Source: Planctomycetota bacterium (lineage in GTDB: Bacteria > Planctomycetota > GCA-002687715 > DRQF01). Taken from it: 41,955 nt of DNA. The notes beneath the pieces were generated by a model, which saw only the letters and a program-made list of their open reading frames with translations, did no database searches and was not told where the DNA came from. A program made the position numbers and the translations under genes. Where the stretch lies: the NCBI GenBank assembly GCA_036479435.1, contig JAZGFI010000084.1, positions 1 through 41,955 of the forward strand, in the 5' to 3' direction. Each line of letters opens with the position of its first letter. The first letter of the stretch is position 1. Below, piece after piece: positions 2,895 through 41,955 of this stretch.

Positions 2895-3051
2895 AAAGCC
2901 TCGATGCGGATCGAGAAGAGGCGGCTCACAGAGTTCGCGTGCAGCGACCGCTTAAGTAAGGTGGCTGCTTGGTGATGCACAATATTCGTCATGGAGATTT
3001 CTATCGCAATGACGGTGCAAAATCTAGCCCCAAAAAAAGAAAATTGTCAGC

Positions 3052-3405
3052 TCACTGCAGCGCGCGCCAAGGTGGCGACCCCTTCGCCACGTTCGGATCA
3101 CCCCCTCGTAGCAAGACGCTTAGTTCGTGTCCTTCGAGAGTTCCGTGCGATGTCGTTTCGCCGTTAATCCAATGTCGAAAACGCCCCGACGAAAGACGTT
3201 TTTGGCACAGCCAAAATCCCTGGCCGTCGTAGGCCAAAATCTTCACGGCCGTTCGCCGGCGGTTGCGAAAAACGAAGAGGGCTCCGCAAAAAGGGTCACA
3301 GTCGAGTTCCTCACGAGCAAGCTTTGCCAAGCCGTCGATGCCCCGGCGGAAATCGGCTGGTGCTACCGCGACGAAGATGCGGGTTTGCGCGGTAAGCTGG
3401 ATCAT
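3052..3405 (-). CDS. tnpB: IS66 accessory protein TnpB (Orf2)
   Basis: MIQLTAQTRIFVA..DFRRGIDGL..LFVFRNRRR..KILAYDGQGFWLCQKRL; ATG at 3405 overlaps the tnpA stop (ATGA). Confidence 0.92.
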   Translation of the reverse strand: MIQLTAQTRIFVAVAPADFRRGIDGLAKLAREELDCDPFCGALFVFRNRRRTAVKILAYDGQGFWLCQKRLSSGRFRHWINGETTSHGTLEGHELSVLLRGGDPNVAKGSPPWRALQ

Positions 3406-3833
3406 CGAGACGAGGCCCAGATATGTTGGACCAAAGCCGCGAGGTCGGCGAGCGGCGTATTCCCGATCTCCAACTTCATCCTCACGTGACTCGTGGATCC
3501 GATCCCGCTCTCCATTTCGATGGAGCAGGTGGCCAGCGAAGAAAGCGACGAGCCTGAAATTTCCACGAATCGAGGGCGTTTGCCGCCATCTGAATCCGTC
3601 CGCTTCGATGAGGACCGACGAAGGTCGCGCCGCTTTTTGAGCGCGTAGTAATCCAGACGAAGCGCTTGCGACGTCTTGCTGACCCCGTGAGCCTCCGCCA
3701 ATGAGACGGCCACCCTCCAAAGAGTCTCGGGGATCCTGGCGCCTCGACGTCGACTTCCTCGCCATTCCCTAAACGCAATCGCGCCCGAAAGAAGTCCGGC
3801 GGTACCCACCTTGCTCGTCTTGCTTGACATCAT
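3402..3833 (-). CDS. tnpA: IS66 accessory protein TnpA (HTH)
   Basis: First ORF inside the IS, RIPETLWRVAVSLA..HGVSKTSQALRLDY HTH-like segment and FVEI motif; coupled to tnpB. Confidence 0.8.
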   Translation of the reverse strand: MMSSKTSKVGTAGLLSGAIAFREWRGSRRRGARIPETLWRVAVSLAEAHGVSKTSQALRLDYYALKKRRDLRRSSSKRTDSDGGKRPRFVEISGSSLSSLATCSIEMESGIGSTSHVRMKLEIGNTPLADLAALVQHIWASSR

Positions 3834-23948: not shown

Positions 23949-24022
23949 GCACCCGTAGCTCAACTGGATAGAGTACCTGGCTACGAACCAGGCGGTTCCA
24001 GGTTCGAATCCTGGCGGGTGTA
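23949..24022 (+). tRNA. tRNA-Arg (anticodon ACG)
   Basis: GCACCCG/CGGGTGT acceptor stem, D arm AGCTCAACTGGATAGAG, anticodon arm CCTGG-CTACGAA-CCAGG, T arm GGTTCGAATCC; CCA not encoded directly after the discriminator. Confidence 0.95.
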
Positions 24023-24091
24023 TCCAAAGATCCCAGCCCTCCCCCCGGGGACGGCAACCCACGAGAGTGCTCGTCGGGGGATCTCAAAGTC

Positions 24092-24139
24092 AAAAATAGC
24101 CGTCGGCAGTGATCCACGATCACGACCGGCGGCTTTTTT
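24092..24139 (+). terminator. Intrinsic terminator downstream of tRNA (possibly bidirectional)
   Basis: AAAAATAGCCGTCGG..GTGATC-CAC-GATCAC..CCGGCGGCTTTTTT. Confidence 0.7.
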
Positions 24140-24225
24140 CATGGCGCTTTTCACCTGACGGGACCCACCGGAATTGCTGATGGGGGCGTTGCGCCGAACC
24201 CCCATTCGCCGTTCTTGACGCGCTC

Positions 24226-25386
24226 TTAGCCCTCAGTGCCTTCGCTCAACAAGTCAACATAGTCCCGATAGACGAAGACGCGGTCTTTCTTCCGGCCGTC
24301 CCGTGGGCACAGGATTTCGGCTTTCTCCAAGATGCCGATCGCCTTGGCCGCGGCCGGGCGAGAGCAGTCCAAAAGCTCAAGGGCTCGGCTGGTGTTGAGG
24401 ACGAGCGACTTGGGCAGCGCTTCAAAAAGCCGGAGGCTCAAGACGGTGGCTTCCGAAAGTTTGACGAGTTTAGCGCGGTGCCTACTGACGATGGCGTGGA
24501 GGCTCTTGGCCGTGGTCACGGATTCATCGGCGACGCTCGCGATACCTTCGAGAAAAAAGGCGAGCCATTCCTCCCATTGACCGTGGCTCCGAATTCGGTC
24601 GAGGCGTCGAAAATACTCATGACGATGCGTCTTCAGGAATAGGCTGATGTAAAGCAGAGGGCGACTGAGAAGACCCCAGTACTTCAGAAGGAGAGTGATG
24701 AGCAGTCTGCCAAGGCGGCCGTTGCCGTCGAGGTAGGGGTGCAAGGTCTCGAATTGCGCGTGGAGGAGCCCGACTCGAACGATGGGATGGAGGTCGCTCG
24801 GAGCGTGAACATATTGTTCAAATTCGCTGAGTAGCTTTGGCAACTCCTCGGGAGAGGGGGGCACGAAGGAAGCGTTGCCGGGCCGAGTGCCGCCGGTCCA
24901 ATTTTGGGAACTCCTTATTCTCCCCGGTTGTTTGCCTTGACCCCGGGAGTTGCTCAGGAGCCGTTGATGTGTTTCCGACAGCAGGCGCATGCTGATCGGC
25001 AGCCCGTCCTTTTTCTCCAGCTCTTGCCAGCCGCAGTTGAGCACGTCGAGGTAGCAGCAAACCTCTTGAAGGTCCGCGTCATTCGGGGCTTCTCCCTTCG
25101 AGTCTTGCTGGAGTAAGTCGGTGAGGGTGGCCTGAGTCCCTTCGATCTGAGCGGACAAGAGGGCCTCTTTGCGAACAAGGGCATAGACAAACCACTCGAT
25201 GGACGGAATCAACTCGCCCGCGAGATTGAGGAGTCGCAGGCTTTCGTCGGCCTGCCGGACCATGTCTTAGAGCCCTTCAGCAAAATCCAGCGCTGGGCTT
25301 TTTGGCGGCAGCGGGAGTGGACTGAAGGCCTTGACGCTTTCCTCGGCGATTCTCGTCGTCTTGTAAATCCCGGACTGTCGGTCCAT
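24226..25386 (-). pseudogene. Fic family protein with C-terminal HTH and an in-frame TAA at 25267-25269
   Basis: HPYLDGNGRLGR Fic motif and SAQIEG inhibitory motif; upstream in-frame MDRQSGIYKTT..KAFSPLPLPP is separated by one stop from the 345-aa ORF. Confidence 0.8.
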
Positions 25387-25394
25387 TGTTTTCC

Positions 25395-25450
25395 CTAAAA
25401 GCAGCGATCGTTTCTTTTGATCGGCTAAAACAAGCGATCGGTTATTTTGA
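25395..25450. promoter_or_regulatory. Two tandem imperfect palindromes upstream of the Fic gene (candidate operators)
   Basis: CTAAAAGCAGCGATCGTTTCTTTTGA and CTAAAACAAGCGATCGGTTATTTTGA, 30-bp period, each centred on CGATCG. Confidence 0.55.
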
Positions 25451-25560
25451 GAAGATCGCGATAGGTGGATTTATCTATCGACTTTAGAGTCCTTCGCCGG
25501 GAAGGCCGTGCCGACGGCTTTTGCCCAACGCTTTTCGCCTGACGGTCGGGAGCCCGTGGT

Positions 25561-25851
25561 TCACGCGACAGATTTGAGATTCTCGCGAATGACCCTTGGA
25601 TGGCGGGCGGCGATCCGAAGCAACGCGATCGCAGGCCCTTCAGGTTTGCGGCGATCTTGCTCCCAGTTTCGAAGGGTGTGGACACTAATTCCCATCGCTT
25701 GCGCGAAGCGAACTTGCGTCAGGCCGACGAATCGACGAAGCGCTGCGACGTCTTCACCGGTCTCGAACTTTCCGGCCATCAAGCGTTTTCGAAGACGCGC
25801 CGAGATGGCTCGGGCCATTTACTTGGAGCTGAGCTCGGGAATGTCGGTCAT
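25561..25851 (-). pseudogene. XRE-family HTH antitoxin with in-frame TAA at 25819-25821
   Basis: GLTQVRFAQAMGISVHTLRNWEQDRRKPEGPAIALL; RBS GGAG then MTDIPELSSK*MARA; re-initiation at 25818 is possible. Confidence 0.7.
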
Positions 25852-25936
25852 CGTTGCTCCTCCATAAACCTCTGGCTTTCGATGCCATATCATAAGCCAA
25901 TGGCGCACTAAGTCAGTGACCTGCTTGGTCTTCCGA

Positions 25937-26308
25937 TCAAAAAGTTATCGTCTCTAACGATGCCATCACTTCGTCGCGAAAAACACCTGCGAGTGATTCG
26001 TTTTCGTGTGTCCATCGGTCTACTATGCCGCCCCAAGGAGAGCGGCTCTGGCGACTGACGATGGGGTGAATCGTGTAGTACAAGTGGTAATGGCTTCGAC
26101 CTAATAGAACTCGTTTCAATTCCGGGACAACTTTGGATTGAAAGGGTGCGCCTGAACCAGGAAATGTAGCGAGTCTCTCGATGGCGCGCGTAAGTTCGTC
26201 GCCGAACAAACCTGATGAGGCCCCGCGATTCATCACCCACCAGCTATCCACTGTCTCCACCTGACTTGCGGCACCCATCGTGAACAGCACCGTCCATCGT
26301 CTTGTCAC
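25937..26308 (-). CDS. ParE/RelE family toxin with an atypical C-terminus
   Basis: WW..NR....LF.DEL..AIERL..FPGSG, RVLL.RSHYHLYY; start overlaps the antitoxin stop (GTGA). Confidence 0.7.
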   Translation of the reverse strand: MTRRWTVLFTMGAASQVETVDSWWVMNRGASSGLFGDELTRAIERLATFPGSGAPFQSKVVPELKRVLLGRSHYHLYYTIHPIVSRQSRSPWGGIVDRWTHENESLAGVFRDEVMASLETITF

Positions 26309-26535
26309 TGCCTTGGCCGAAGGCCTCGTAGCACTTCGTCAGCTAGCAACACTCGACCAGCCGCCGCGTCTTGCTCAGAACGTGCAAGAACGCTTTCGAG
26401 CCGCCGCCGGTCGTCGTCAGACATGTCGTCCCACCAGTCTGCCGGAACCAAGTCGATCTCGGTACCATCCGGCAGGTCCGTGGCCTCGTCTAGCACGAGC
26501 CGCCCGTTTTTTACGTGTGCTTTCATCTCTGACAT
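26305..26535 (-). CDS. Putative antitoxin paired with the ParE-like toxin
   Basis: KAHVKNGRLVLDEATDLPDGTEI..acidic helix..DAAAGRV..ADEVL; small acidic ORF directly upstream of the toxin. Confidence 0.7.
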   Translation of the reverse strand: MSEMKAHVKNGRLVLDEATDLPDGTEIDLVPADWWDDMSDDDRRRLESVLARSEQDAAAGRVLLADEVLRGLRPRQ

Positions 26536-26599
26536 GCACCCATCTTATCGGAAACTAGGATGTGTCCGAAGGAAAACCAGATCAAGATGAAGCGCGCCT

Positions 26600-26685
26600 G
26601 TCAAACGTGTACGGCATCAGCTGCGGCATGTAAGGGCGTCGGCACCGCCGCATCTTGTCCGGTCGCATCGCAGCCATGGTCGGCA
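26600..26685 (-). repeat. Degenerate attC site after tpm
   Basis: Minus strand ...GCCGCAGCTGATGCCGTACAC-GTTTGAC right arm and R'-like box; left arm poorly preserved. Confidence 0.35.
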
Positions 26686-26696
26686 CCTTCTTGTGA

Positions 26697-27335
26697 CTAT
26701 TTCTGCCTTAGGATCCAGACATCTTCCGCCGCCGGGCATTTCCCTTTGAGGCCGCCAGCGACTTCTGCTCTTTCCAGCAAGTTCAGGTCGTAGCTGGTGC
26801 CGTAGAGGCGACGCACTTCCGCCTCGTCGACGCTGAAGGGCGGTCCGTCCATGACTTTTTGCTCGTAGTCGAAACAAATCAACAGCTGCGGTGCCGAGTC
26901 CGTAATTTTAGCAACGTGCAAGGCGTAGTTGTCCCTCAAGGTTGGAGGGAGAGCGACCAAGGCCGCCCGGTCATAATGAGCGTCGACAGTTCCAATCAAC
27001 TCGCTTGACACCTCGAACAAGTTGCCCTGAAGTATCTCAATGCCCTCAGCGCTGTAGCGTACCAAGGGTCCGTCAGACTTTAGGCGCGGCCTTAGGCCAA
27101 GTTCTTCGAACAACTGCTCAACCGCCGTCTTACTCAGCTCAACGCCAACCACCTCGAAGCCTTGCTCCATGAACCAACCCAGGTCGCAGGTTTTTCCGCA
27201 GAGCGGCACAAAGACTCGTGCCCCTTTCTTGAGCCCCAGCTGACCAAGGTGTTTGACGAGCAAGGAGTTGGGCTTGCCTTCGTGAAATCCGATGTTGTTG
27301 TCTTTCCATCTTTCGTGCCAGAACTCGGCTTCCAT
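26697..27335 (-). CDS. tpm: Thiopurine S-methyltransferase
   Basis: MEAEFWHERW..IGFH, RVFVPLCGK, GVELS, YDRAALVALP, GPPFSV; ATG after AGGAG. Confidence 0.93.
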   Translation of the reverse strand: MEAEFWHERWKDNNIGFHEGKPNSLLVKHLGQLGLKKGARVFVPLCGKTCDLGWFMEQGFEVVGVELSKTAVEQLFEELGLRPRLKSDGPLVRYSAEGIEILQGNLFEVSSELIGTVDAHYDRAALVALPPTLRDNYALHVAKITDSAPQLLICFDYEQKVMDGPPFSVDEAEVRRLYGTSYDLNLLERAEVAGGLKGKCPAAEDVWILRQK

Positions 27336-27631
27336 AGTTTTTCTCCTGCGTGCTGCGGGCATCTTAATTGTCGCGGATCGGGTCCTCGGCTCATTCGCTG
27401 GATGGAACGAGCCTCGACCTTCCGCTCCAGAGCCTGTATTTTTCATGAATGACAAACAACGGTGCGTTCGTATTCTCGAATTTCCATCTCCTTTGGAAAT
27501 CACAAACGCGTCCTTTTCCCCGGACCTGATCAACCCACACAAGTAGTGTCAGCAGTCAACCCAGATGAGGGCAGTTCGGCCAATGATTGCCACCGATGTT
27601 TTCAAGATGGGCCTGAATTTCGATCATGTTT

Positions 27632-27695
27632 GCCGGGCAGTCCTGCCAATCAGCGGTCGCGCGAAGAGCCGTCAGCCTGGATCGCCTTGTTGCTT
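27632..27695 (-). repeat. Degenerate attC site
   Basis: Minus strand AAGCAAC-AAGGCGATCCAGGCTGACGG..CCGCTGATTGGCAGGACT-GCCCGGC; imperfect palindrome with decayed R boxes. Confidence 0.5.
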
Positions 27696-27975
27696 GCGTC
27701 TCGATTCTTCAGAGCCTTCTCGACATCCCTGGCGACTTTCTTCGCCTCGGCGTAGCGGGGGGCGACTCCCAACGCTTTTTTGAAGTACTGAATCGCCTGT
27801 CGGTAGTTTCCCTCAGCCCGCATGATCAGCCTCAGGTTATAGTAAGCCTCCTCGGTGGCGCCGGTGCGAAGTCTTACCGCCCGACGGTGATGCTTCTTCG
27901 CATTGTCAAAGTCCCCTCGCCTTGGCGAGAAGGGCTCCAAGGTAGATGTGGTAGCTGGCGCAGCCGCTGGTTGCC
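27650..27975 (-). pseudogene. TPR protein fragment, frameshifted
   Basis: ASYHIYLGALLAK and GDFDNAKKHHRRAV..EAYYNL..GNYRQAIQYFKKAL..PRY lie in two frames joined near 27920. Confidence 0.55.
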
Positions 27976-28331
27976 ATCGCTGGGTAACCGGCTCCTTGGG
28001 TGTCGTCGTTGCGAACATCATTTCGAGCGTTCTCGAGGAGCGCAGAATACTCCAATCCGAAGGGTCGCGGCAATCGCTTCTCAAGCAAGGAATACAAGCA
28101 CAAGCCCTTCGTATTTCGTGGGGCCCAAGGTGATGGTCGGTTTGTACTCGCTCCTTTGACCCTCGCCGCCGGGCTAACCCCTGGCGAGATCAACTTGTCG
28201 TCGCCCAATGCCGCGCCGATGGCGCGAGAAGAGGAGCCGTTAGGCCAATGACGGTGAGGGGCGCCGCTCTGACGCTCCTGCAAGATGCGTTTTCGGGCAG
28301 ATACGCGCCCGAACATGCTAGCTCGCGAACG

Positions 28332-28703
28332 TCAGGCCGCGACGTTCTTGGGGTTGGGTCCATACCGGTTACTTCTAGTCTCGCTGTCGCTCGCCAAGAA
28401 GACGATTAGCACGATCGTGCCAATGATTGGAATTAGGCCGATCAGGAACCACCACCCGCTTCGGGTCGTATCGTGCAGTCGTCGGACGAAGACAGCGAAG
28501 GTTGGAACAAAGACCGCCAGAGCATAGAGCCCACCAAGGAGTCCGTACCCACTACCGTTGTCGACGAGACCGGTGAGGACGTCGACAAGGCCAAGGGCGA
28601 ACGAAAAAACCATGCTGAAGAACGTAAAGAGCCAGTACTCCTTGCGACGGGCTCGGCCACTAAAGACCGCGTACTTCTTCAACACTTTGATGTACCAGTG
28701 CAT
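28332..28703 (-). CDS. DUF805 inner-membrane protein (YhaH/YhaI-like), cassette gene
   Basis: KYAVFSGRARRKEYW, VRRLHDT.RSGWW, NRYGPNPK. Confidence 0.92.
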   Translation of the reverse strand: MHWYIKVLKKYAVFSGRARRKEYWLFTFFSMVFSFALGLVDVLTGLVDNGSGYGLLGGLYALAVFVPTFAVFVRRLHDTTRSGWWFLIGLIPIIGTIVLIVFLASDSETRSNRYGPNPKNVAA

Positions 28704-28728
28704 CCATTTTCCCTTCGGGTGGTTCGCG

Positions 28729-28795
28729 CATTAAGCAGTTGGGCTGATCAGCGACGGCCGCGAAGCCGCCGACGGTCAATAGTAGCTGGCTAGAT
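28729..28795 (-). repeat. Degenerate attC site
   Basis: R''-like ATCTAGC contains the stop of the upstream ORF; central hairpin CGGCGGC-TTCG-CGGCCGTCG; R' decayed. Confidence 0.5.
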
Positions 28796-29254
28796 GTCGC
28801 CAGCGCGTGCACTGCGGGATTCAAGAAGCACGCTGTGGGGTGCGCACACCGTAACGATCTGCTGAGAGTGGGCTTTCCCGTTGCGATCGATGAGCGTGGC
28901 CGTGCATGAGACAGGTTGCCCCCGGGCGTACTCGGAAAGAGATCGAGGTGGCGGGACATCGATGTCGAACTTGACCTCGATGCTGGCGTCTTGCACGGCA
29001 TCAGGCGCGACCTTTGCGGCGGCCAAGAGGCGATCGAGCATCGCAGAATAGCGATTCGTGACATCTTCGAGGAGAGGGAGCTGATTGGTATTGGGAGCAG
29101 GCCTGAGTGTGATGAGGATCTGATCGCGGCTTGTCTTCTTTGCCAGACTATACAGCAGACCCAGGGCCCAATAGCCGCCCGTGTCGTTGTTCCGGCTTGC
29201 GAACGATTCGGCCAAGCCGTCAGCCACGTTCTTCAGAGCCTTGCGCTGTGCCAT
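28790..29254 (-). CDS. Hypothetical protein (cassette gene)
   Basis: 154-aa ORF with GAGG RBS, bounded by attC-like sites; FASRNNDTGGYWALG motif. Confidence 0.7.
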   Translation of the reverse strand: MAQRKALKNVADGLAESFASRNNDTGGYWALGLLYSLAKKTSRDQILITLRPAPNTNQLPLLEDVTNRYSAMLDRLLAAAKVAPDAVQDASIEVKFDIDVPPPRSLSEYARGQPVSCTATLIDRNGKAHSQQIVTVCAPHSVLLESRSARAGDI

Positions 29255-29268
29255 GATCTACCTCGTGC

Positions 29269-29328
29269 ATCTAAGGCTTTGCCGCTCAGCCGCGGGCGGA
29301 ACCCGTCGGCTGCAGAGGCTCGCTAGAC
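29269..29328 (-). repeat. attC site (R boxes mutated)
   Basis: GTCTAGC-GAGCCTCTGCAGCCGACGGG-TTCCG-CCCGCGGCTGAGCGGCAAAGC-CTTAGAT; palindrome with extra unpaired bases. Confidence 0.7.
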
Positions 29329-30041
29329 CCCGGTTGTGCTGGGCAACAAAGATCCTCGCGACCATGCCACTCGTGGTGAATGTCCCGCATGAGCAACGCA
29401 CAATCGAACTCGGTTGATCCGGCTGGAAACAGAGCCTCGTTCTCGAAGAAGCTGGATTCCACACGATCAACTGCCAAGGGCTCGACGTTCCAGTTCCTGC
29501 AGACTAATTCCAAACCGTCATAGCGCCCGCTCGTTCGCGTCGTCGAGTACCCCAACGATCCGTTCTCGAAGAACGCGGACGCGACAGCTATGGATGGAAA
29601 CACCGACGACTTCTGAATGCGGTCCGCAACCACTCCGGAAACGCAGGCCTGAGCTTGGCCATCGTCGCTTCGAAATGCAAGCGAGAACCGCTGCTCAGAC
29701 TCTTGAACCGAAAAAGTCGCGTGATGGTGGATGCCGGGGAAGATCGTTCCGCCCGCGAGAGTGTTGAGCCTCGAATCGCTGTCCCGGCGGGGGATGTAAA
29801 CACCCTCCCGTGTACGACCACCGTCTTCCCATTCGACCGCGATGCGGTGCGCGGCGTTCTCCGATCGGATCCCGCAGGGCAGAGGGAGGAACCGGGGGCG
29901 GACCTTCTTGAGGCGGATAAGACAGATCCCGCCGATCGCGTAGCCATTCACTAACTTCGGGCGAAACGGAGGTGGAAGGAACTGAGTCATCACTTCAGCG
30001 TCGATACGGAAATTCACAAGAATGCGTCGATCGATGATCCC
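29286..30041 (-). pseudogene. DUF2071 (YqjF-like) protein lacking its normal first residues
   Basis: GIIDRRILVNFR, GICLIRL, SENAAHRIAVEW, GVYIPRRD, FDCALLMRDI.HEW; no nearby start codon and reads through into the attC. Confidence 0.7.
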
Positions 30042-30235
30042 TATGAATCTGTAGTGCCGCGACTGAAGACGAAGAACGTCGCGCCAAGACAGAGGCTTGA
30101 CACTCCCAGTACGACGTACACGAGATTGCCGCTGATCAGACCCAAGGTGCTCCATGTCACGCCCCCGAATACGAAACCAATTGTGGCGATACTGTAAAAG
30201 AAATTCGTCATGTTTGTGTTTTCCGTTGAGTCCAT
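30041..30235 (-). CDS. Small two-TM membrane protein or fragment
   Basis: Two hydrophobic segments in a 64-aa ORF. Confidence 0.4.
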   Translation of the reverse strand: MDSTENTNMTNFFYSIATIGFVFGGVTWSTLGLISGNLVYVVLGVSSLCLGATFFVFSRGTTDS

Positions 30236-30266
30236 CCCGAGAGTTCGATGCCAAATTCGATCCCGC

Positions 30267-30824
30267 TCACCTTGTCAGCCCATCGCTTTGTAATGCAGAG
30301 CACTGCTCCGAAACTTCGAGGCATGCCACATCGTCGCCTCCGTCATAGGCCTTGACAAACTCGCTTTTCTGTAGTGTGTTTGTCTCTGGCGGCTGGCTGG
30401 AGTCGACCATCTTCAGCAAGATCAGGTCATCATCGGTAGCATCAACCACGAGCATGATGTGCCACTTTTCTCCTCCGAGCGGCTTGTTGGCAATTGAGAC
30501 GAGAACCGGCTACCGGCTGGCGAGGCGCTTCTCGACAAACGCGAGCTTGTCGGCTCCCTTTCCGGACGCAAATCCGACACGCCGAAAGTCAAGGCACGGG
30601 CATTTCTTGCGGATTTTGGCGGCCATCGATACGAAGTTATTTCTCGGTTGCCCGCTAGGCTTCAGGCTTTGGTTGAGATCGAGATCATTTTGGAACGACG
30701 GAAAGTCGACGCCCCCGGCGCCCACCGCCCGGAGGATCATCTTGTCTCCCGTGGGGATGCAGCTCGACTGAGGTCGGCGTTGATGTACCGCGTACTTCTG
30801 CCAATCAGGAAAGACGGAATTCAT
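30267..30824 (-). pseudogene. C39/papain-like peptidase-like protein with in-frame TAG at 30510-30512
   Basis: HQRRPQSSCIPTG (Q/C) and, in the same frame after the stop, PVLVSI..WHIMLVV; AGGAG RBS. Confidence 0.5.
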
Positions 30825-30869
30825 CGTTGGCTCCTGCCTATTCTACTGCGGGTGGATCTTCATGCATAA

Positions 30870-30901
30870 GGTGGCCGTCCGTTTGCATCAGCTTGTTAGG
30901 C
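30870..30901 (-). repeat. Left half of an attC site
   Basis: R'' GCCTAAC (contains the ORF stop) followed by AAGCTGATGCAAACGGACGGCC; the matching right arm is missing. Confidence 0.6.
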
Positions 30902-31300
30902 GGCACCTTCCCAAAGTGTAAGAATAACACCCATTGAGTTCTCGGCGAGGAAGTCGCCAAAGCTAATCCAGTCATAGTGAACATGATAGGAAACGCCTGA
31001 GGCAGTCGAATCGGACTCGGTAGGTAGGTTGCTTGCCAAGTTGCTCAGGAAGTCGTCGTCGCCGTTGACCACAAGGCAGCTGGCCCGCACCGAGATCATG
31101 TTGGCCTTGGTTCTCCCGATCTCGAGGTGAGAGAGAACGGACTCGTAAGGAGCGGGGTCAAATTCAATGGCCGCCTTGCACAGCATCCGAACTTCCGCTC
31201 CATCTAGCAGCGCGAGAATCCTCCGTCGAAGAGCGAGCCAATCGCTGGCATCGCCCTCGATATTGGCGTCCTCATTGGTCGTATGTGAGATACGAAGCAT
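30896..31300 (-). CDS. Hypothetical acidic protein (cassette gene)
   Basis: 134-aa ORF between R' GTTAGAC (31312-31318) and R'' GCCTAAC. Confidence 0.7.
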   Translation of the reverse strand: MLRISHTTNEDANIEGDASDWLALRRRILALLDGAEVRMLCKAAIEFDPAPYESVLSHLEIGRTKANMISVRASCLVVNGDDDFLSNLASNLPTESDSTASGVSYHVHYDWISFGDFLAENSMGVILTLWEGAA

Positions 31301-31324
31301 CGGCCTTGTTCGTCTAACAGGGTT

Positions 31325-32591
31325 GAGTGTGGCTCCTCTGCGACGACACTTATGTCCTTACTAAACATGGATTTAGGTCTTTTTCGGGTTAGGAAATTTG
31401 GGCCATCCTTGATAGCTATGCGATGAAAACTGCAATAGGTCGGCACGGAGACCCCAAATGTCAACTGAACCATCATACCCTGTAACGGCATTCGGTTCAT
31501 CCCACGCTTTGTTCGAGACCCTTACTACGCGGCTGTGTTCCCGGGAAACAGCGTCGATGTCGCACAGCGATCTGGAAGACTTGGTCCGCGAGGACGGAAA
31601 CGCGATTCTTCGCGAACTGCTTCAGGATCACTTGAATCTTCGTTCGGCCAAAGAGGAACGGCAATCATCGGTAGAAGGCTCCGACGGTGTCAGGCGTACG
31701 CACGTCCGTTGGCGGAGCCGAGTGCTCAATACCGTGTTTGGGAAGGTGAAGATCCAACGCTTGGCCTACAGTCGTCGGGATACTTCGAGCCTGTGTCCGA
31801 TGGATGCAGAACTGAATCTTCCTGTGACTCAATACTCCGATGGCTTGAGACGATGCATGGCGGAGGAGTCGTCGCGAGGTTCGTTCGACGAGGCGGTGCC
31901 GAACCACGGCGACGACGGTGCCAAAGCGGCAAGCTGAAGGACTGGCGTCGATGGCGGCGGGAGACTTCGACGCGTTCTATGCGCAACCTAAGGTGGATGC
32001 TCTGGAGACGACGCTGGGTCCGTTGATCCTGACGGTGGATGGAAAGGGAATCATCATGCGCCGACAAGACCTTTCGCCGGAGACCAAAAAGGCGGCGGAT
32101 CGTATCGCGAAACAACGGCGTTGGAAGCCTCGAAGCGAAGAAGACGGGGGTTGGCGGCGCATGGCAACCGTCGCCTCGGTGTACTCGGTGGCCCGCCATG
32201 TGCGGACGCCCGAGGATGTCATGGCTGAGTTACGCGGCGGAACGACGGTGGCAACGAAACCGAAGCGCTCGTTGGCAGAAAACAAGCGCGTCTGTGTGAG
32301 CATTGCAAAGCCAGCGAAGTTGGCGATCGAAGATGTCTTCGAAGAAGCTCGTCGGCGCGATCCCGGCCTTGGGCGGAAGTGGGTCGTGCTTGTCGACGGA
32401 AACGAAAAACAGATCGAATGGATTTTGGAGGCGGCGAAGAGCCAGGGAGTCGAAGTCACGATGGTCCTCGACTTCATTCACGTGCTGCAATATTTGTGGA
32501 AAGCTGGCAACGCTCTTTGCGGAACCGGAACGTCGGATGCAGAGAAGTGGGTGTGCCACCGGGCCACGCTCGTCGCAAAGGAGCCACACCC
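31325..32591 (+). mobile_element. ISKra4-family element, internally deleted
   Basis: IRL GAGTGTGGCTCCTCTGCGACGA (31325-31346) and IRR TCGTCGCAAAGGAGCCACACCC (32570-32591), 20/22 match. Confidence 0.8.
31458..32570 (+). pseudogene. ISKra4 transposase, frameshifted near 31910 and missing the C-terminus
   Basis: RELLQDHL, TVFGKV..RLAY, PMDAELNLP, SFDEAV; then LTVDGKGIIMR, RMATVASVY, WVVLVDG, LDFIHVLQYLWKA; homology stops at the IRR. Confidence 0.82.
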
Positions 32592-32649
32592 TTCTCCTGT
32601 AGTGTCTTGGCCGCGGCGTTCATGATTCCGCATCCGGACCGGAATAGCT

Positions 32650-33290
32650 TAGGTCGCTGATTGGCGTAGTAAACTTCAAGCTTAGTGCAAAAGCAGCAAA
32701 GCCAATGCGTTTGCCCCGTAATTCTCCAGCTGGTTTCGTCGCAGTAACGCATCGAAGCCCGATCGACGACAGACATTGTGAATGTCGTCATACTCGCTCT
32801 GGAAAAGACCTGCGAGGCGTTGCCAGGACTTGACCAGCGCGCCTCCCGTTATCGCGAAGCCGTGTTGCTGCTTGAGAAGAAGCTCAACAATTCGAGAAAC
32901 CGTGATCCCGTGCAGGTAGTGCTGGACCGCCGTCAGGTTCACGACCTTCAAGCCAATGTGGTCCCCAGGCATCGCGTCGGTAACCGCTGACTCGACTCGC
33001 TTTCTGCCGCCGCCGCAGTACTGCCTAATTTCATTGAGCACCGTCTCCGGTCTTTCAAGGACGATATCTTCAATGAAACGTTCGCGATAGCTCGGCTTGT
33101 CCTCAGCTGTCCGGCAAGCCTTGAACTTTCCTTCGCAGTGAGGACAGCACTTTGCCGTGTGGACTTCTTTTTGGTCCCAAGTTTCAGGCTTTTTCCGAGT
33201 CACTCCAACGTGACCGCCTTTGCGACCTGGGGACTTTTTGCATTTGCAAGAAAGGGCCTTTTTGTAGGCAGGCTGCTGGCCGGAAGGGTT
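32650..33290 (-). pseudogene. IS66-family transposase internal fragment
   Basis: PGRKGGHVGVTR, CPHC, and a frameshifted DETSWR..HWL segment. Confidence 0.7.
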
Positions 33291-33529
33291 CGCGAAGACG
33301 GCCACAGGGAATTCGTTCGGGGCGTCGGTGGCCCATTCGACAACGCATGGCGGACTCAACAAGGGATCTACATGGCCGAAAGACCGATTCTCAAGCCTTC
33401 ACCGGGGGTGCACCGGCGCGGGATTGGCCAGACCCGAATGGGGCTACGGTTGCTGTGCTCTGAGTCTGCGAGAGTGCGGAGTTTTCGAGAAAGTAGGGGA
33501 CGCCCGAGCATCTCGCGCACCATACCAGC

Positions 33530-36586: not shown

Positions 36587-37088
36587 CAATGCCATTAACT
36601 TAACGCCAAGTCCAAGACCTGGCCGATCGCGCCTCGCAGCTCGCCCTCACTCCCGATTGTTAGAATCGGAAGTTGAAGAAGTGCCATCGCGATCCCCGTG
36701 CCGTACAATCCAAACTACGGCGCTATTTTGACAACCCCCCCCCCCGCCTACGTTGAAGACAAAAGTGGCGGTGAATCTCGTCATGAATTCAGTCGGACTG
36801 GGCCCTCCTCACCAAGGCTTTCTTTCGGCATCTTGCTCTACCCAATCGCCGACTCTGGACACCAAGGTTACAAGTACTTGCTCGATGAGTTTTGGGATGA
36901 GTGCGAAGACTTCGGGCTTGGTCTTCCCGACCGGGCAAGCTGTTTTAGCGGCGTCTTGCAAGGCGCGCAGAAAGCTCAGCCGGAGGTCGTCCGAACGCTG
37001 CTCCACGAAGTCGTTGACGGCTTTCAAAAGACACAGAGATCGTCCTATCAGTGGAACGGGAGGCGCGTTCTATCTTGCGATGGGTCGT
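36587..37088 (+). mobile_element. Truncated, decayed IS4-family copy (left end and 5' transposase)
   Basis: IR CAATGCCATTAACTTAACGC; similar to 39466-40080 with an internal deletion of about 100 bp and frameshifts. Confidence 0.8.
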
Positions 37089-37169
37089 TCAGCGGAGCGA
37101 CTCGTCGCAAGACGCGTTCGGAGGCTCAAAGAGCGCGGCGATAAATCGCCAGATTGCCTCCGTTGATGT

Positions 37170-37219
37170 TGGTTGCTGACACGCTGCGTGCGAACCTCGT
37201 GTTGGCCGACATCACTCAT
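37170..37219 (-). pseudogene. Possible 5' remnant of type I restriction subunit HsdR
   Basis: MSDVGQHEVRTQRV overlapping the stop of the AlbA-domain gene; resembles HsdR N-termini, but is very short. Confidence 0.35.
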
Positions 37220-38591
37220 GGCCGTCCTCCAAAACTTCCCAGTGTCCACCCTTGTCGGATCCCACGCGGCGTAGCGCCCCCGCGGCCTTGAGCTTGCTGA
37301 GCTGCCACTCGATACCCTTGGCGGTTATGCCGATTTCCTCTGCGAGTTCCTTCGTCGTCAAGGACGGCTGCAGCCTGATCAAACGAAGGACCTTCTCCCT
37401 AGTTTTCTCCCTAGTTTTCTCCCTAGTTTTCTCCCTAGTTTCTGGGATAGCCTCTCTTGGTGTTTCAGCTGTGAGGCTTGCGAGGTAGGCCGCCGAGAAC
37501 GGGAACTCGAACCACAGATCGCCCGGCTCCACTCGGATACGGGGTTTTGGCGTACCGGCCTCATTGCAGGCTTCGAAAACTCGCTGGATCCCGCGCCCCC
37601 ACGCTTCGATTTCGCCAGCTCGGAAAAAGACATTCGCCACGGAAGGATTGAACGGCTTGGAAGGGTGCCGCCCCAGCAGCTTTGCGCTCGACCAGTCGTC
37701 CGGCAGTTCGCCGGGGTTCCAGATCAACAGCCGGTCGGGATAGACCCGGATCTGGATGGGGGAGGGTACCGCGTAGTCTCGGTGGATGATGGCATTGAGC
37801 ACCGCCTCACGCAGAGCGGCGGCCGGCATGGGGAAGGACTCCACTCGCTGAATCCCCTCGTAGCTGATTGTTGCCTTCAGGTACTTGGTCAACAGGAGTT
37901 CCATGGTCTTGTCGACCTGTGTGAACAAGTCGCCCTGGATCTCGTCGTGATACCGCAGGTCGGCTTCGGTCGCGAAGTAGCCGATCTTGACCAGGGCGCC
38001 GGTGAAGAAGCGTTCCGGGTCGGGGTGAAAGAGCAGAGCCGCCGCCCGCTGTAGGAAGTCCCCTTCCACCAGGCGCAGCTTGTCGATCAGCCCGGCATCG
38101 TTATCGACGAGGGCCTCGGTGCTCAAGCGATCGCTCTTGGCCGCCTGCTCGCGGAAGCGCGCCAGCGCGTCTGCATCAAGGTCCTCCAACGACAGGCCGG
38201 GCAAGGTCACGCTGTCCCAGGTGCGGCCGTACTTGCGCAACAAAAAGCGGTCGAGGGCTGCTCCCTTGATCATCTGGTTAGTGCTACCGCTGCGGACAAA
38301 GTAGTCACCCTTGTAGCTAACCGGGCTGGGATAGGCTTCGACGCGAAGCTCCAGGAACTCCAGCCCCGCCTCCGTTCGCAAGTTGATCTCCACCAGGATG
38401 CCGAGCAGATCCCGCACCTTGTTGGGCAACTCCTCCAACAAACGATGGGCGTTCTCGATGCCAACCACCTCGCCCCGGTCATCCCGGCCAATCACGAGCA
38501 GCCCGCCCTCGGAGTTGGCGAAACCGCAGACCCACTTCAGGTACTCGTCGCGCCAAGACGCCTTCCACTCGGTGTTCTGGTCTTCGTTCAT
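37212..38591 (-). CDS. AlbA_2 (Schlafen-like) + HATPase_c_4 + HTH protein (RecG-like transcriptional regulator)
   Basis: MNEDQNTEWK.SWRDEYLKWVCGFANSEGG, ALREAVLNAIIHRDY, IWNPGELP, NPSVANVFFRAGEIEAWGRG, C-terminal HTH and RVGSDKGGHW. Confidence 0.9.
   Translation of the reverse strand: MNEDQNTEWKASWRDEYLKWVCGFANSEGGLLVIGRDDRGEVVGIENAHRLLEELPNKVRDLLGILVEINLRTEAGLEFLELRVEAYPSPVSYKGDYFVRSGSTNQMIKGAALDRFLLRKYGRTWDSVTLPGLSLEDLDADALARFREQAAKSDRLSTEALVDNDAGLIDKLRLVEGDFLQRAAALLFHPDPERFFTGALVKIGYFATEADLRYHDEIQGDLFTQVDKTMELLLTKYLKATISYEGIQRVESFPMPAAALREAVLNAIIHRDYAVPSPIQIRVYPDRLLIWNPGELPDDWSSAKLLGRHPSKPFNPSVANVFFRAGEIEAWGRGIQRVFEACNEAGTPKPRIRVEPGDLWFEFPFSAAYLASLTAETPREAIPETREKTREKTREKTREKVLRLIRLQPSLTTKELAEEIGITAKGIEWQLSKLKAAGALRRVGSDKGGHWEVLEDGHE
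37393..37440. repeat. 12-bp in-frame tandem repeat x4 (TREK)
   Basis: TTCTCCCTAGTT repeated four times, in the linker before the HTH. Confidence 0.9.
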
Positions 38592-38851
38592 GCGCTGGCC
38601 TCTGTTGGGCGCCCTTTGAATTCTTCGCGCCATTCCTTCAGGGATTCTAGGTTGTGCCGCAGCTCTGGCTCTTCGGGCAGGAAACTCGGTGTCTCCTGTG
38701 ATTGGCTGTGCTCGTAGCACGAGAACCTGGTCATTGGGTCATCGATGAGCTCTTGGTGACGCTCAAGGTTGTTGTTGATCGGTGGTAGCTCCGCAGACGA
38801 TGCACAACTCACCACGAGGAAAACGAGCGCTGCGGCGACTAGACGATTCAT
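38588..38851 (-). CDS. Small putative lipoprotein (cassette gene)
   Basis: MNRLVAAALVFLVVSC lipobox-like signal; AAGGA RBS just after R' GTTATCC. Confidence 0.6.
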   Translation of the reverse strand: MNRLVAAALVFLVVSCASSAELPPINNNLERHQELIDDPMTRFSCYEHSQSQETPSFLPEEPELRHNLESLKEWREEFKGRPTEASA

Positions 38852-38867
38852 GGGGTTTCCTTCTTTG

Positions 38868-38927
38868 GGATAACGACCTCTGCTTCTGCCACCGGCGGAT
38901 CCGGTCGACAGCAAGCAGCTGCTAGGC
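38868..38927 (-). repeat. attC site
   Basis: GCCTAGC-AGCTGCTTGCTG..ACCGG-ATCCG-CCGGT..CAGAAGCAGAGGTC-GTTATCC; palindrome with one extra base in the L'' arm. Confidence 0.8.
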
Positions 38928-38946
38928 ACCGATTGCCTACACATGC

Positions 38947-39435
38947 TCAGTTCCCTCCACCCGAATGAAGCGGAGGGGGCGCTCTATGAGGGCCGCTCGT
39001 GCCGAAGTGCCTTACTGTGATCTTCGAAAACACAACCTCGATCGTCGAGCTTGTCGACGCCAAATCCATTCGAAATAAGCCTATGTCGCCCAGGCTCACA
39101 CCTGCGTTGTCCCAAGTCGCCCTTACGCGCTCTATTGCGGGGTCCGAGTCCAAGCTCTCAGCGGCGCCGATCATCTCACCACCGGACATGCACTTGACTC
39201 CCCAGCTCATCTTGGTCTGAACATGCCAGCAGCCACCAAAAATCAACTCGACAGCTTGAGAGGTTTGGTTCTCCCAATCGCTGAGCAAATCGAGCTTCAG
39301 TATGACCTGATCCAACGACTCAGTGCGGACGAGCACGATTTCGTAGAGGACGCTATCGTGCCAGCATCGGCCGCCGAGATACGCTACGGCGTCCTTTGCT
39401 GATTCGATCTCGGTAGTCCGGTAGTCTGCATTCAT
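38947..39435 (-). CDS. Hypothetical protein (cassette gene)
   Basis: 162-aa ORF starting 20 nt after R' GTTAGGC (39456-39462); WHDSVL motif; followed by an attC. Confidence 0.7.
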   Translation of the reverse strand: MNADYRTTEIESAKDAVAYLGGRCWHDSVLYEIVLVRTESLDQVILKLDLLSDWENQTSQAVELIFGGCWHVQTKMSWGVKCMSGGEMIGAAESLDSDPAIERVRATWDNAGVSLGDIGLFRMDLASTSSTIEVVFSKITVRHFGTSGPHRAPPPLHSGGGN

Positions 39436-39465
39436 GTCTGCTATCGCCTTAGTGCGCCTAACGAG

Positions 39466-41003
39466 CAAGGCCGTTAATTAAACACCGCCCAAAACCGCGC
39501 CGATCGCGCCTCGTAGCTCGCCCTCATCTCGTGCCGCCCGCACTCCCGACTATTAGAATCGGAAGTTGAAGAAGTGCCATCGCGATCGGATCGATGGCGC
39601 AAAAACTGTGAGACCAAAAAAGAAACTCGCAACATGATTGGCCCCCCAATCGACAAGATTGGCGCTGATTCAATCGCGACGCGATCTCCGTGCCGTACAG
39701 TTCAAACTACGGCGCTATTTTGACAAAATGCCTGCCTTCGTTGAAGACAAAATTGACGACGAGTCTCGTCGTGACTTCAGCCGAAATGGGCCCCTATCTC
39801 CAAGGCTTTTGATCGTCATCTTGCTCTACCTCGTCACCGACGCAGGGCGCCGAGGCTACAAGCATTTGCTCGATGAGTTTTGGGACGAGTGCGAAGACTT
39901 CGGCCTGGAGCTTCCGACCGAGCAAGCTGTTTCGGCGGCTGCGTTTTGCAAGGCGCGCAAGAAACTCAAACCGGAAGTTTTCCGTGCCTTGCTCCACGAA
40001 GTCGTTGACGGCAGTCAGGAGACACATGGGCCATCCTATCGGTGGAAAGGGCGAACCCTTCTTGCTTGCGATGGATCGAGTATCTCGCTGCAGCGAAGCG
40101 CCTCGTCGCAAGATGAGTTTGGGGGCTCCTCGACTGGACATTGCCCTCAGGCGATGCTCTCGACTCTCTTTGATGTCCACGCGAAGATGCTGGTGGACCT
40201 GACGATCGCGCGTTACGCAGCGTGCGAGCGCAAGGAGCTTCTGAAGATGCTCGATCGCGTCAGGCCTGGCGACGTCCTCTTGTTGGATCGGGGCTACACG
40301 TCCTAGGGATTGATGAAGGAGCTGAAGGACCGGGGGATTGAATTCGTCATGCGGGCTTCGACCAAGCTCCCCCACAAGGCCGTCGGGGAGTTCATCATGA
40401 ATCAAGGCCGTGACCGCGTGATCGAAGTCGCGGGCACCAGAGGCTCATCGCGGCGCGACAAGCCCGTTTCGGTTCGGGCAGTTTTTCGCGAAAGGCGAAA
40501 CGACGACGAGTGCCTCGTCTACTTGACGAGCCTTCATCGCAATGAAGCAACGGCCTTAGAGGTTCACGAACTGTACGCGTTGCGCTGGACCGTCGAGGAA
40601 CACTTCAAAGTCGAGAAAGGCGACTACCTTGGGCAACGCCAACTTCACGCCAAGTCGCCAGATGGCATTCGCCAAGAGATCATTGCTTTCGCCTTGTTGA
40701 CCGCCGTTACGAGATCGGTCATGGCCGATGCCGCGGCGGCTCATGAGGTCAAGCCAAGCGACGTCTCCCAAAAGGCGGGTTACTTGGTTGTCGGCTCCTA
40801 CCTGACTCGAATGCTGGCTGATCCTGTGACCGAAGCGGAACGCAAAACGGTTGAACGCATGCTGCGGCGGATTACGGCCAAGCTTGAACCGCCACGGCCT
40901 GGACGGTCCTATCCGAGGCGATCGTTCAAGCCCTTACCGAAGTGGGGGGGGGCTCATGGGCGCCGATGGCGTGAGAAGAGGAAGCGTTAGGTTAATGGCA
41001 TTG
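39466..41003 (+). mobile_element. IS4-family insertion sequence
   Basis: IRL CAAGGCCGTTAATTAAACAC and IRR GCGTTAGGTTAATGGCATTG (14/20 match); single DDE transposase frame. Confidence 0.85.
39638..40990 (+). pseudogene. IS4 transposase with in-frame TAG at 40304-40306
   Basis: SAAAFCKARKKL, ACDGS, LLDRGY, Y..RW.VE..FK (YREK motif), RPGRSYPR. Confidence 0.88.
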
Positions 41004-41007
41004 GTAG

Positions 41008-41421
41008 TTAGGCATCGCTCGACATACGTTCGACTGCGCCGCCAAAGTCGTAGTCGCTCGATTTCGGAACGCAGACAACGAGGAGTCCTCCGAATACGCG
41101 CTCCCAATGCCCACCTTCCTCGACTACTCGCGAGAGGATCGCCTCCAGCTCCTGCGTATCTGGCGCGAGGAATTCATGGCGTTCCAGTGAGGCGCGTTCG
41201 GCCACGCGAATAAACCTAAACAGATCAGGTGCCACCCTCTCCACTGCGATCGTATCTCCGAAGTTCGGAAGAAGCTCAAGCTCTTCATCCGACTCAGCCA
41301 TCATCGAAGAGAGAGGATCAAGATCAAGGCGGTAGAGGTTTTCGCCGACCCTCGTAGCGAGAACTGCATTGTCGGTGACTCCGTTTGGATACTCGATGGA
41401 GAGCTTAACTTGATCGTTCAT
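41008..41421 (-). CDS. Hypothetical protein (cassette gene)
   Basis: ATG 7 nt after R' GTTAGGC; stop TAA inside R'' GCCTAAC (41007-41013); GGHWERVFGGLLVV motif. Confidence 0.75.
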   Translation of the reverse strand: MNDQVKLSIEYPNGVTDNAVLATRVGENLYRLDLDPLSSMMAESDEELELLPNFGDTIAVERVAPDLFRFIRVAERASLERHEFLAPDTQELEAILSRVVEEGGHWERVFGGLLVVCVPKSSDYDFGGAVERMSSDA

Positions 41422-41428
41422 TTTGAAT

Positions 41429-41494
41429 GCCTAACGAGTTCTCATTCAGCTGCGGTGCGCGGAGCGGACCGTCCGCTGCAATGAGCTGTTAGAT
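41429..41494 (-). repeat. Intact attC site (66 bp)
   Basis: R'' ATCTAAC, CTCATTGCAGC / GCTGAATGAG arms with an extrahelical base, R' GTTAGGC. Confidence 0.92.
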
Positions 41495-41955
41495 GTTGAG
41501 CACGGCCGGGAAAGCGACTCAAAAAATAACTACGCCAACAAAGATGAGGATGCCGAAGCCAAGACCAAATGTCCAGCGCCGGTTGCGCCTGAACGCAGCG
41601 ACACCGAGGCGCGTGCCCGGCCGACCCGCTGGGGCTTGGCGATTTCGTGGCTGAAGATCATGAAACCCGAACCATCAAGCTTGTGACAGAGTTCTTCGAG
41701 TGATGCCGTGAAACGCCTAGACCGACAGCAACTGAAGCGGAGTATCGGGCGCCGATGATTAGGGGCCTTTGACTGGCGACGGGTAGAAGACCAATGGGGT
41801 CGGCTTGTCCGGAGCGAAACGACGAGGGCCGTTGGTGAAGACAAAGTGAACCGCCGAAGAGCGCTTGGCCAACGGCGCCAGGGCCACGCGGTGGAGGCTT
41901 GGTTGCCGCAGCCGCGAAGAGTACCGCCCCTGATCAACCGGCACACACATCTAAC
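41495..41955 (-). other. Gene cassette without a convincing ORF
   Basis: Starts with R' GTTAGAT (41949-41955), exactly complementary to its own R'' ATCTAAC (41488-41494); only weak ORFs inside. Confidence 0.7.

Follow-up and report, generated by a model that had tools for sequence, protein, structure and literature searches.

Close to the right-hand end of the window, by which we mean the whole 41,955-nt stretch of DNA analysed here, an insertion sequence (IS) lies between two gene cassette ORFs and is bordered on either side by what reads as one outer end of an attC site (Table 1). The sequence runs GCCTAAC-GAG (39456-39465), IS (39466-41003, 1538 bp) and GTA-GTTAGGC (41004-41013): the two R boxes are fully complementary, each of them lies 3 nt from the nearest IS end, and no target duplication is present beside the element. 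This layout had already been described in the initial annotation of the region, and it holds both in the sequence itself and in exact junction contigs from independent sequencing runs (see below). Elsewhere in the window, positions 1-1094 carry a group II intron (reverse transcriptase, maturase and a domain V-VI match), followed by IS66-family genes (1200-3765), while the stretch 23949-33400, after a tRNA gene, encodes a Fic protein, an HTH antitoxin-like ORF, a thiopurine methyltransferase, and DUF805 and DUF2071 proteins. Hairpins resembling attC sites were recognised by eye at ~26600-26690, 28726-28800, 29271-29330, 30860-30901 and 38868-38927, all of them unmatched by the model of the 66-bp attC family described below, and four tandem 12-mers (37393-37440) lie within an AlbA_2/ATPase/HTH gene (37212-38590).

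Table 1. Coordinates of the IS, its flanks, the neighbouring cassettes and the related remnants in the window.
Feature	Position	Strand	Remarks
IS of the IS4 family, probably IS4 subgroup	39466..41003	+	1538 bp; near single copy; no target duplication
Left terminal inverted repeat (IR), partly decayed	39466..39483	+	13/18 nt match the right IR
Right terminal inverted repeat	40986..41003	-	Inner part R-box-like, GTTAGGT at 40986
DDE transposase gene with YREK motif	39659..40990	+	One stop at 40304-40306; start placed by the longer relative P0122
Left flank, attC nt 1-10	39456..39465	+	R' box on bottom strand (39456-39462) plus GAG; identical to 41429-41438
Right flank, attC nt 57-66	41004..41013	+	GTA plus R'' box (41007-41013); mirror-image 10-bp target window
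Intact 66-bp attC of the host family	41429..41494	-	Model for the lost site
Gene cassette ORF, 137 aa	41008..41421	-	No Pfam/NCBIfam match; stop codon within R'' box
Next cassette ORF, intact	38947..39435	-	ATG at 39435; no Pfam/NCBIfam match
Truncated, frameshifted relative of the IS	36587..37127	+	Retains the left end; 5' part ~77% identical in nt; no attC-like left flank
Degenerate right-end remnant	28213..28256	+	From the same IS family; contig C19 carries a related ~75-bp mini-element

Judged by its motifs, size and ends, the element is a member of the IS4 family, probably of subgroup IS4, as both are delimited by De Palmenaer et al. 2008 (PMC2266710). Its transposase (P0001) occupies a single frame that is broken by the internal stop, which is absent from the transposase of its sibling in the same genome (P0002). 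The catalytic triad is formed by D115, D187 and E290, with spacings of 71 and 102 that agree with the family pattern D(60-110)D(100-150)E, and the Y-(2)-R-(3)-E-(6)-K motif is represented by Y283, R286, E290 and K297. The protein scores 175.6 bits against the NCBIfam IS4 model NF033592 (cut-off 115), as expected of an IS4 element with a single ORF, and the length of the IS falls within the 1400-1650 bp of the subgroup. The subgroup end signature, -AATR--------WTW----, is complete in the sibling; in this copy the right end retains AATG and two of the three WTW positions, and the left end deviates at the T of AATR. The 10-13-bp duplication typical of the subgroup is missing here; it is seen in the sibling (89% identity) and in 16 of 60 complete copies of the clade, and we read its absence as a probable secondary loss. 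Only 1 of 84 highly conserved transposase positions differs from the sibling, which argues that the copy represents a lineage of its own that was inactivated recently, and not old debris; no mosaic step was seen along the protein. The inner part of the right IR (40986-40992) reads RYYYAAC, in the form ACCTAAC here and ACTTAAC in the sibling, like the R boxes of the host attC sites. The idea that an R box might mimic this inner IS end and so attract insertion beside a pseudo-end was rejected, as the geometry appears unfit.

The host encodes an integron integrase (IntI) on contig C63 (TIGR02249, 435 bits, above the NCBIfam cut-off) and carries a 66-bp attC family of which six full members were identified (C84:41429 in the window, and C63:11, 535, 1060, 1922 and 3253), along with more degenerate ones. 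The intact members fold with paired R boxes and a loop of 3 nt. All six have GAG at nt 8-10, in five cases after a starting R box, and the site at C63:1060 ends in GTA-GTT, exactly as does the right flank of the IS, so that the two flanks correspond to nt 1-10 and 57-66 of such a site. About 46 bp of attC interior are consequently missing if a single site was involved, and a larger stretch if each half derives from a site of its own; the L boxes and the loop are gone, as noticed in the initial annotation. The same annotation pointed out that the left flank equals the start of the attC at 41429, which is correct at every position, although this identity is mere family consensus. The lost site would have been a proper attC, with the order R''-L''-L'-R', a position 3' of a cassette gene and an IntI in the genome; the hybrid site as it now stands departs from this, having no L boxes, a loop of 1.5 kb and, in the model fold, no extrahelical base. 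The integrase gene (C63:3996-4937) points in the same direction as the cassettes of that contig (C63:11-3318) and lies upstream of them. We take this arrangement to be the 'inverted integrase' layout. At the edge of the window (41400-41955) the summed contig depth is ~10-35x that of the neighbouring cassettes, and variant alleles are numerous; both the 138-aa cassette (41530-41946) and the attC give the impression of a high copy number, which suggests that the real array is larger than the assembled one. One 407-bp contig of run X5 returns from 41949 to 41432, as a tandem or circular cassette would.

How the relatives of this IS insert was examined in 125 loci from genomes and metagenomes plus three from the bacterium's own order, 127 of them with a transposase hit; they provided 60 distinct complete copies with both flanks, and 165 distinct flanks in all. 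A duplication of 9-11 bp accompanies 16 of the 60 complete copies, being exactly 10 bp in 13 of these. Among contigs of at least 8 kb it is found in 7 of the 8 other complete copies (L009, L011, L030, L037, L039, L127 and G061:C6), the single one without it, besides the element studied here, being L002; most of the remaining duplication-free copies sit in short metagenome contigs, where mixed flanks can be demonstrated (L072/L074, L088/L089). The intact sibling P0002, 89% identical in amino acid sequence and with its ends on contigs C218 and C148, is bounded by a perfect 10-bp duplication, GCCGGTAGGT, in a site that is not an attC. Normal duplications at sites other than attC thus occur in this clade, an outcome that the initial annotation had named as speaking against attC targeting. 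The flank pattern that it proposed to look for in homologous copies, RYYYAAC-N3/N3-GTTRRRY, does not recur: RYYYAAC at 3 nt from the IS end occurs in 2 of the 165 distinct flanks, both belonging to this very copy.

In the host genome no second copy of the lineage remains, and the four other pieces of the IS family lie off R boxes, save for the sibling's partial match discussed below. One of them, the truncated relative at 36587-37127, lacks 99 bp between two CGCGATC repeats that are present in the full element at 39581-39686. The ~75-bp mini-element C19:2055-2129 consists of both ends of this IS, and the remnant at 28213-28256 is a more decayed copy of it; the two share a similar right flank of ~60 bp and both lie near cassette-like DNA. 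Beyond its own genome, the transposase was found in 1 of 60 relatives and in 1 of 22 genomes of the order (G012, 44%). A protein search of viral contigs gave none, and all plasmid matches were below 31% identity.

Further cases of an IS of this kind in an attC were sought by scanning for an R box next to the IS-end pattern. The pattern was present in 5 of 400 other genomes of the phylum (5 control hits), with no transposase within 1.5 kb; in 2 of 401 genomes of another class (1 control hit), with no transposase near and no attC recognisable by eye; and in 0 of 301 genomes of a third phylum (1 control hit). Viral DNA gave at least 120 loci, 40 of them with short flanks, and none of the matches listed had a transposase. 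One viral locus nearly identical to the right junction (L480) was set aside as a chance match, as it falls within an open frame of 206 codons and no transposase occurs in its 620 bases. The power of these scans is low: when the end pattern was relaxed, it matched 71 of 401 genomes, mostly by chance and with few true multi-copy elements. In low-depth contigs (X2 record 15, X7 record 28) the right 365 bp of a relative of ~84% identity lie between or beside attC pieces, and its alignment reaches 41010, that is, 7 nt past the IS end and into the R-box flank; partial matches can stretch such alignments, that of the C19 mini-element extending to 41007, and this relative is only a hint of a further R-box insertion. 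No confirmed second attC case of an IS4-family element emerged from these searches. With none among the 163 other distinct flanks at a fixed attC position, and with scans taken to be at or below control, attC targeting is no trait of the clade as sampled, power for the exact lineage being low, with one other full copy of >60% identity and known flanks. Nor did we find a report of an IS4-family element targeting attC in the literature searched, mainly openly accessible papers; the initial annotation, too, knew of no such targeting for IS4.

The spacing of the junctions finds an explanation in the target window of the clade, since 3 nt plus the 7-nt R box make up 10 bp, the length of the clade's duplication. 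Over 123 distinct target windows, from copies of at least 38% identity, a weak symmetric preference SSYYNNRRSS is apparent, and the half-site SCCY/RGGS occurs in 42/123 windows against 14/123 outer-arm controls and 3.3% of array windows. Both flanks of our element carry this half-site in register, the left one starting with GCCT and the right one ending with AGGC. Scored with the clade-wide matrix, the two flank windows fall within the best 4.5% and 13.4% of all array windows and rank 3-13 and 6-18 of 77 within intact attC sites; these scores are unremarkable, and clade-wide preference alone therefore does not force the symmetry. The duplication of the sibling, GCCGGTAGGT, matches N3-GTTAGGY at 6 of 7 positions in the same register as the R box, a level reached by 0.25% of genome windows and by 0/123 other clade windows; 7/7 windows make up 0.02% of the array region. 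At the level of sequence this suggests a lineage preference, N3-G(G/T)TAGGY, that coincides with the host R box, drawn from one independent site, the sibling's, and noticed post hoc. Against the same pattern, the truncated relative at 36587 reaches 4/7 and the C19 mini-element 5/7 and 1/7, and the targets at the nine ends of a multi-copy relative in genome G225 are GC-rich and only loosely defined. There is one G(G/T)TAGGY per 5 kb, and the stretch between 37.5 kb and the end of the contig contains it at no other places than 39456, 41007, 41429 and, within the end of the IS itself, 40986; owing to this local scarcity a second local event would find the mirror R box, if the preference is real.

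Palindromes were considered as targets in their own right. No dyad-centred targeting was seen in the close clade (4.77 vs 4.49 pairs of 12, 13 sites), whereas nine distant copies do show it (6.67 vs 4.18 pairs of 12). Of 59 complete copies, 5 have mirror flanks, compared with 2 among 3422 cross-locus pairs. Four of the loci with mirror flanks and no duplication (L069, L117, L120 and L115) lie in palindromic (GGCACG)n repeats or in a palindrome derived from an IS end, and in L069 two copies of one relative stand 45 bp apart in one repeat. L002 (G012:C7:640235-642755, a 44% relative) lies in the hairpin loop of the last of 13 CRISPR-like repeats; on the right, the flank picks up the repeat again nearly in phase, and the insertion is not symmetric about the hairpin. 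L013, a candidate for a second apex replacement, was rejected, having a 9-bp duplication with one mismatch at the hairpin centre. The mirror-flanked and CRISPR-hairpin copies fit either insertion and deletion in two steps or an attack on a cruciform, or, in the short contigs, mis-assembly.

The junctions themselves appear sound. Contigs of two runs from two studies (X2 and X7) cover 38500-39582 and 40636-41459, and hence both junctions, with 0 differences, no single piece spanning the whole 1538-bp element. In X2 the exact IS-interior contigs have a depth of 92-94 and the junction contigs one of 76-83, and in X7 the figures are 35 and 32-35, a ratio of ~1.0-1.2 with the caveat that contig depth is no copy number. 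Exact junction contigs in two studies, together with this near single-copy depth, make mis-assembly unlikely. A chimera joining two opposite-facing copies, each inserted at an R-box window, might be suspected in a short-read assembly with no piece across the element, the more so as mixed flanks are common among the relatives, but the depth ratio in both studies speaks against it, and so does the sole other full-length copy, whose flanks, marked as belonging together by their own perfect 10-bp duplication, cannot be swapped with those of the IS at 39466-41003; we hold such a chimera to be very improbable. The empty-site allele that the initial annotation proposed to look for did not turn up, no joint skipping the IS being listed in four runs, of which X10, lacking cover of both flanking cassettes, and X5, covering only the multicopy part, are uninformative on this point. 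Nor was any joint removing either flanking cassette at the hybrid site listed in these four runs.

The reading that we favour, and consider fairly probable, is that the IS entered one terminal window of an attC and that the mirror window was reached afterwards, either by IS-driven deletion or by recombination with a second copy located there. The clade cuts with a 10-bp stagger and favours an SCCY half at the start of the window or an RGGS half at its end, and the lineage may favour N3-G(G/T)TAGGY, which equals the host attC R box plus 3 nt. Insertion into one terminal 10-bp window would have produced a normal duplication and left a whole attC beside the IS; an adjacent deletion, or homologous recombination with another copy of like orientation, would then have ended at the mirror window 56 bp away, or at its counterpart in a further attC of the array, with loss of one duplicate and of the attC interior. 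The product observed is attC nt 1-10, the IS and nt 57-66, each flank being exactly 10 bp. The transposase would have acquired its stop codon later, and the hybrid site, presumably dead for IntI, would lock the two cassettes together. Support for these two events comes from the length of each flank, which is that of the clade's duplication, from the normal duplication of the sibling and its 6/7 match, from the half-sites in register, from the local scarcity of G(G/T)TAGGY and from the closely spaced copies of L069. The reading needs two rare events at one 66-bp site, and its intermediate, an IS bordered by the R box in duplicate and next to a complete attC, turned up nowhere in the material searched; the absence of a second copy of this lineage and of a mosaic step along the protein likewise speaks against it. 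There is a precedent in ISRm22, another IS4-family element, for which the relevant part of the original study describes 3 of 9 copies in REP hairpins with hybrid flanks, arising by recombination between copies or by adjacent deletion (PMC1525189). Of the three origins suggested in the initial annotation, ordinary insertion followed by adjacent deletion is the one that fits best; the deletion end, however, was probably not a matter of pure chance, given the half-sites in register at both flanks and the sibling's 6/7 R-box match.

That the deletion nonetheless ended without any preference, its symmetry being a coincidence brought up by a very large scan, strikes us as decidedly unlikely. Such a view is helped by the lack of attC association in the 163 other flanks and in the pattern scans, by the weakness of the clade-wide preference, by the tolerance of cassette arrays for IS debris and by the position of the other genome pieces off R boxes; both ends must then have fallen on two single mirror positions, however, in a region where complete matches are as scarce as stated above, which by our rough estimate would happen in ~1 in 10,000 array insertions without a lineage preference, and the sibling's match has to be accepted as a second coincidence. 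We also regard as unlikely a one-step attack on an extruded attC cruciform, in which a transposase dimer would generate the deletion, without duplication, in one event. Near the four-way junction, in the 3' arm of each hairpin, the enzyme would link one IS end to position 56|57 of the top strand and its partner to position 10|11 of the bottom strand, and after collapse the 46-nt 3' flaps would be trimmed. Exact symmetry would follow from the single event, and the strand polarity appears correct; short-loop attC sites extrude, according to the pertinent section of PMC8946536, and those of the present family have a 3-nt loop; RAG transposition is targeted to cruciforms in vitro, as set out in part of PMC1618415; and the excess of mirror flanks, as well as the duplication-free L002 in a terminal CRISPR repeat hairpin on a long contig, would be accounted for. 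Against this, the model has to treat as coincidence both the 10-bp register and the presence of half-sites at the outer edges, the bases adjoining the cuts (GTAG, CTCG) are poor half-sites, and the close clade has no dyad-centred targeting; RAG, in the experiments described in that part of the report, hits hairpin tips and not stems near the junction; the mirror cases come from short metagenome contigs with demonstrable mixed flanks, L013 has a duplication and L002 is asymmetric about its hairpin; and our literature search found no such mechanism.

The two remaining origins offered by the initial annotation fare worse. In one of them both arms of a single folded strand are cut and the apex is replaced, and attC bottom strands do fold, with the junctions at the unpaired central spacer of the fold. 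DDE enzymes join the 3' ends of the IS to 5' ends of the target. A cut in the 5' arm would on this chemistry join the IS end to the apex piece, and inverted IS copies around the apex would be expected instead of what is observed; the junctions, moreover, lie 1-3 bp apart in the fold and not at the clade's 10 bp, and we consider this origin highly improbable. In the other, the inverted repeats of the IS lengthen the R-box stem, so that a giant functional attC results. R boxes and IS ends do pair, at -14.8 kcal/mol in a model fold of the bottom strand with the IS interior omitted, but a longer stem would result from any IS placed on a dyad axis, and the hybrid stem has only symmetric mismatches, no extrahelical base and a 1.5-kb loop; long loops lower recombination by up to 4 logs under replicative conditions, as stated in the relevant passage of PMC8946536, and no joint excising either cassette at this site was listed in the four runs. 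A functional giant attC thus seems extremely improbable.

Taken as a whole, the scar at 39466-41003 is real, striking and single, and the IS a new member of a known family; known steps, aided by a target preference overlapping the R box, most likely produced it, rather than a new targeting system. That an IS4 lineage is drawn to attC R boxes, be it through a converged N3-G(G/T)TAGGY preference or through one-step replacement of the interior of a cruciform, we deem doubtful, although the sibling's 6/7 match, the mirror-flanked relatives, the duplication-free copy in a CRISPR hairpin and the ~84% relative near attC pieces are compatible with it. If the favoured two-step reading is true, an IS preference overlapping the R box kills the attC, spares the neighbouring genes and fixes the cassettes, which is of modest interest. 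If instead the lineage were attracted to R boxes, it would represent an attC-targeting IS of the DDE type by which cassettes are welded to one another. If the cruciform were the true target, a DDE transposase would be reading the structure of a four-way junction and deleting its target rather than duplicating it (a 'negative duplication'); attC attack would then have a third route besides group IIC-attC introns and IS1111-attC elements, and IS4 copies that lack a duplication would have to be read differently.

The element is not of the IS1111-attC type: its transposase matches DDE_Tnp_1/IS4 models, it has terminal IRs, where IS1111-attC elements have sub-terminal ones, and no Rfam match falls within it. 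IS1111-attC elements are reportedly the subject of papers by Tetu and Holmes (2008) and by Post and Hall (2009). Our comparison with these and other known systems is as follows. (i) Insertion sequences are often seen in cassette arrays and at attC sites, and the portion of PMC12444791 dealing with them cites only IS1111 papers. IS1111-attC elements such as ISKpn4 and ISPst6 resemble our case in being an IS in an attC site; in contrast, according to the sections of PMC11187229 that describe them, they are DEDD elements with a seekRNA that occur recurrently at one attC end, whereas the element here is of the DDE type, its use of attC is non-recurrent and the interior of the site is lost. (ii) Group IIC-attC introns are likewise mobile elements associated with attC, but, as characterised in part of PMC8876359, they are retroelements that split the gene from a site that stays whole. 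(iii) RAG transposition into cruciforms (Posey et al. 2006, PMC1618415) shares with the one-step reading a DDE enzyme that prefers extruded inverted repeats; it was described in vitro and at hairpin tips, and the part of the report concerned with it mentions no symmetric apex deletion. (iv) With the members of subgroup IS4, as portrayed in the relevant sections of PMC2266710, the element has in common the DDE triad, the YREK motif, the -AATR...WTW- ends, a length of 1400-1650 bp and, in its relatives, duplications of ~10 bp; this copy differs from them by its lack of a duplication, its stop codon and its decayed left IR. Marked specificity for a target arm is documented there for some IS4-family members. 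(v) Distant IS4 members are found in terminator-like hairpins, while the close clade has a weak SSYYNNRRSS window and no dyad-centred targeting. (vi) ISRm22 (Tobes and Pareja 2006, PMC1525189) is, like our element, an IS4-family member in a repeated palindrome with hybrid flanks; as far as the section on this IS goes, it hits the dyad axis in all copies, whereas here the outer ends of the palindrome are used and one copy is known, and it is ISRm22 that provides the closest working analogue of the scar described here.
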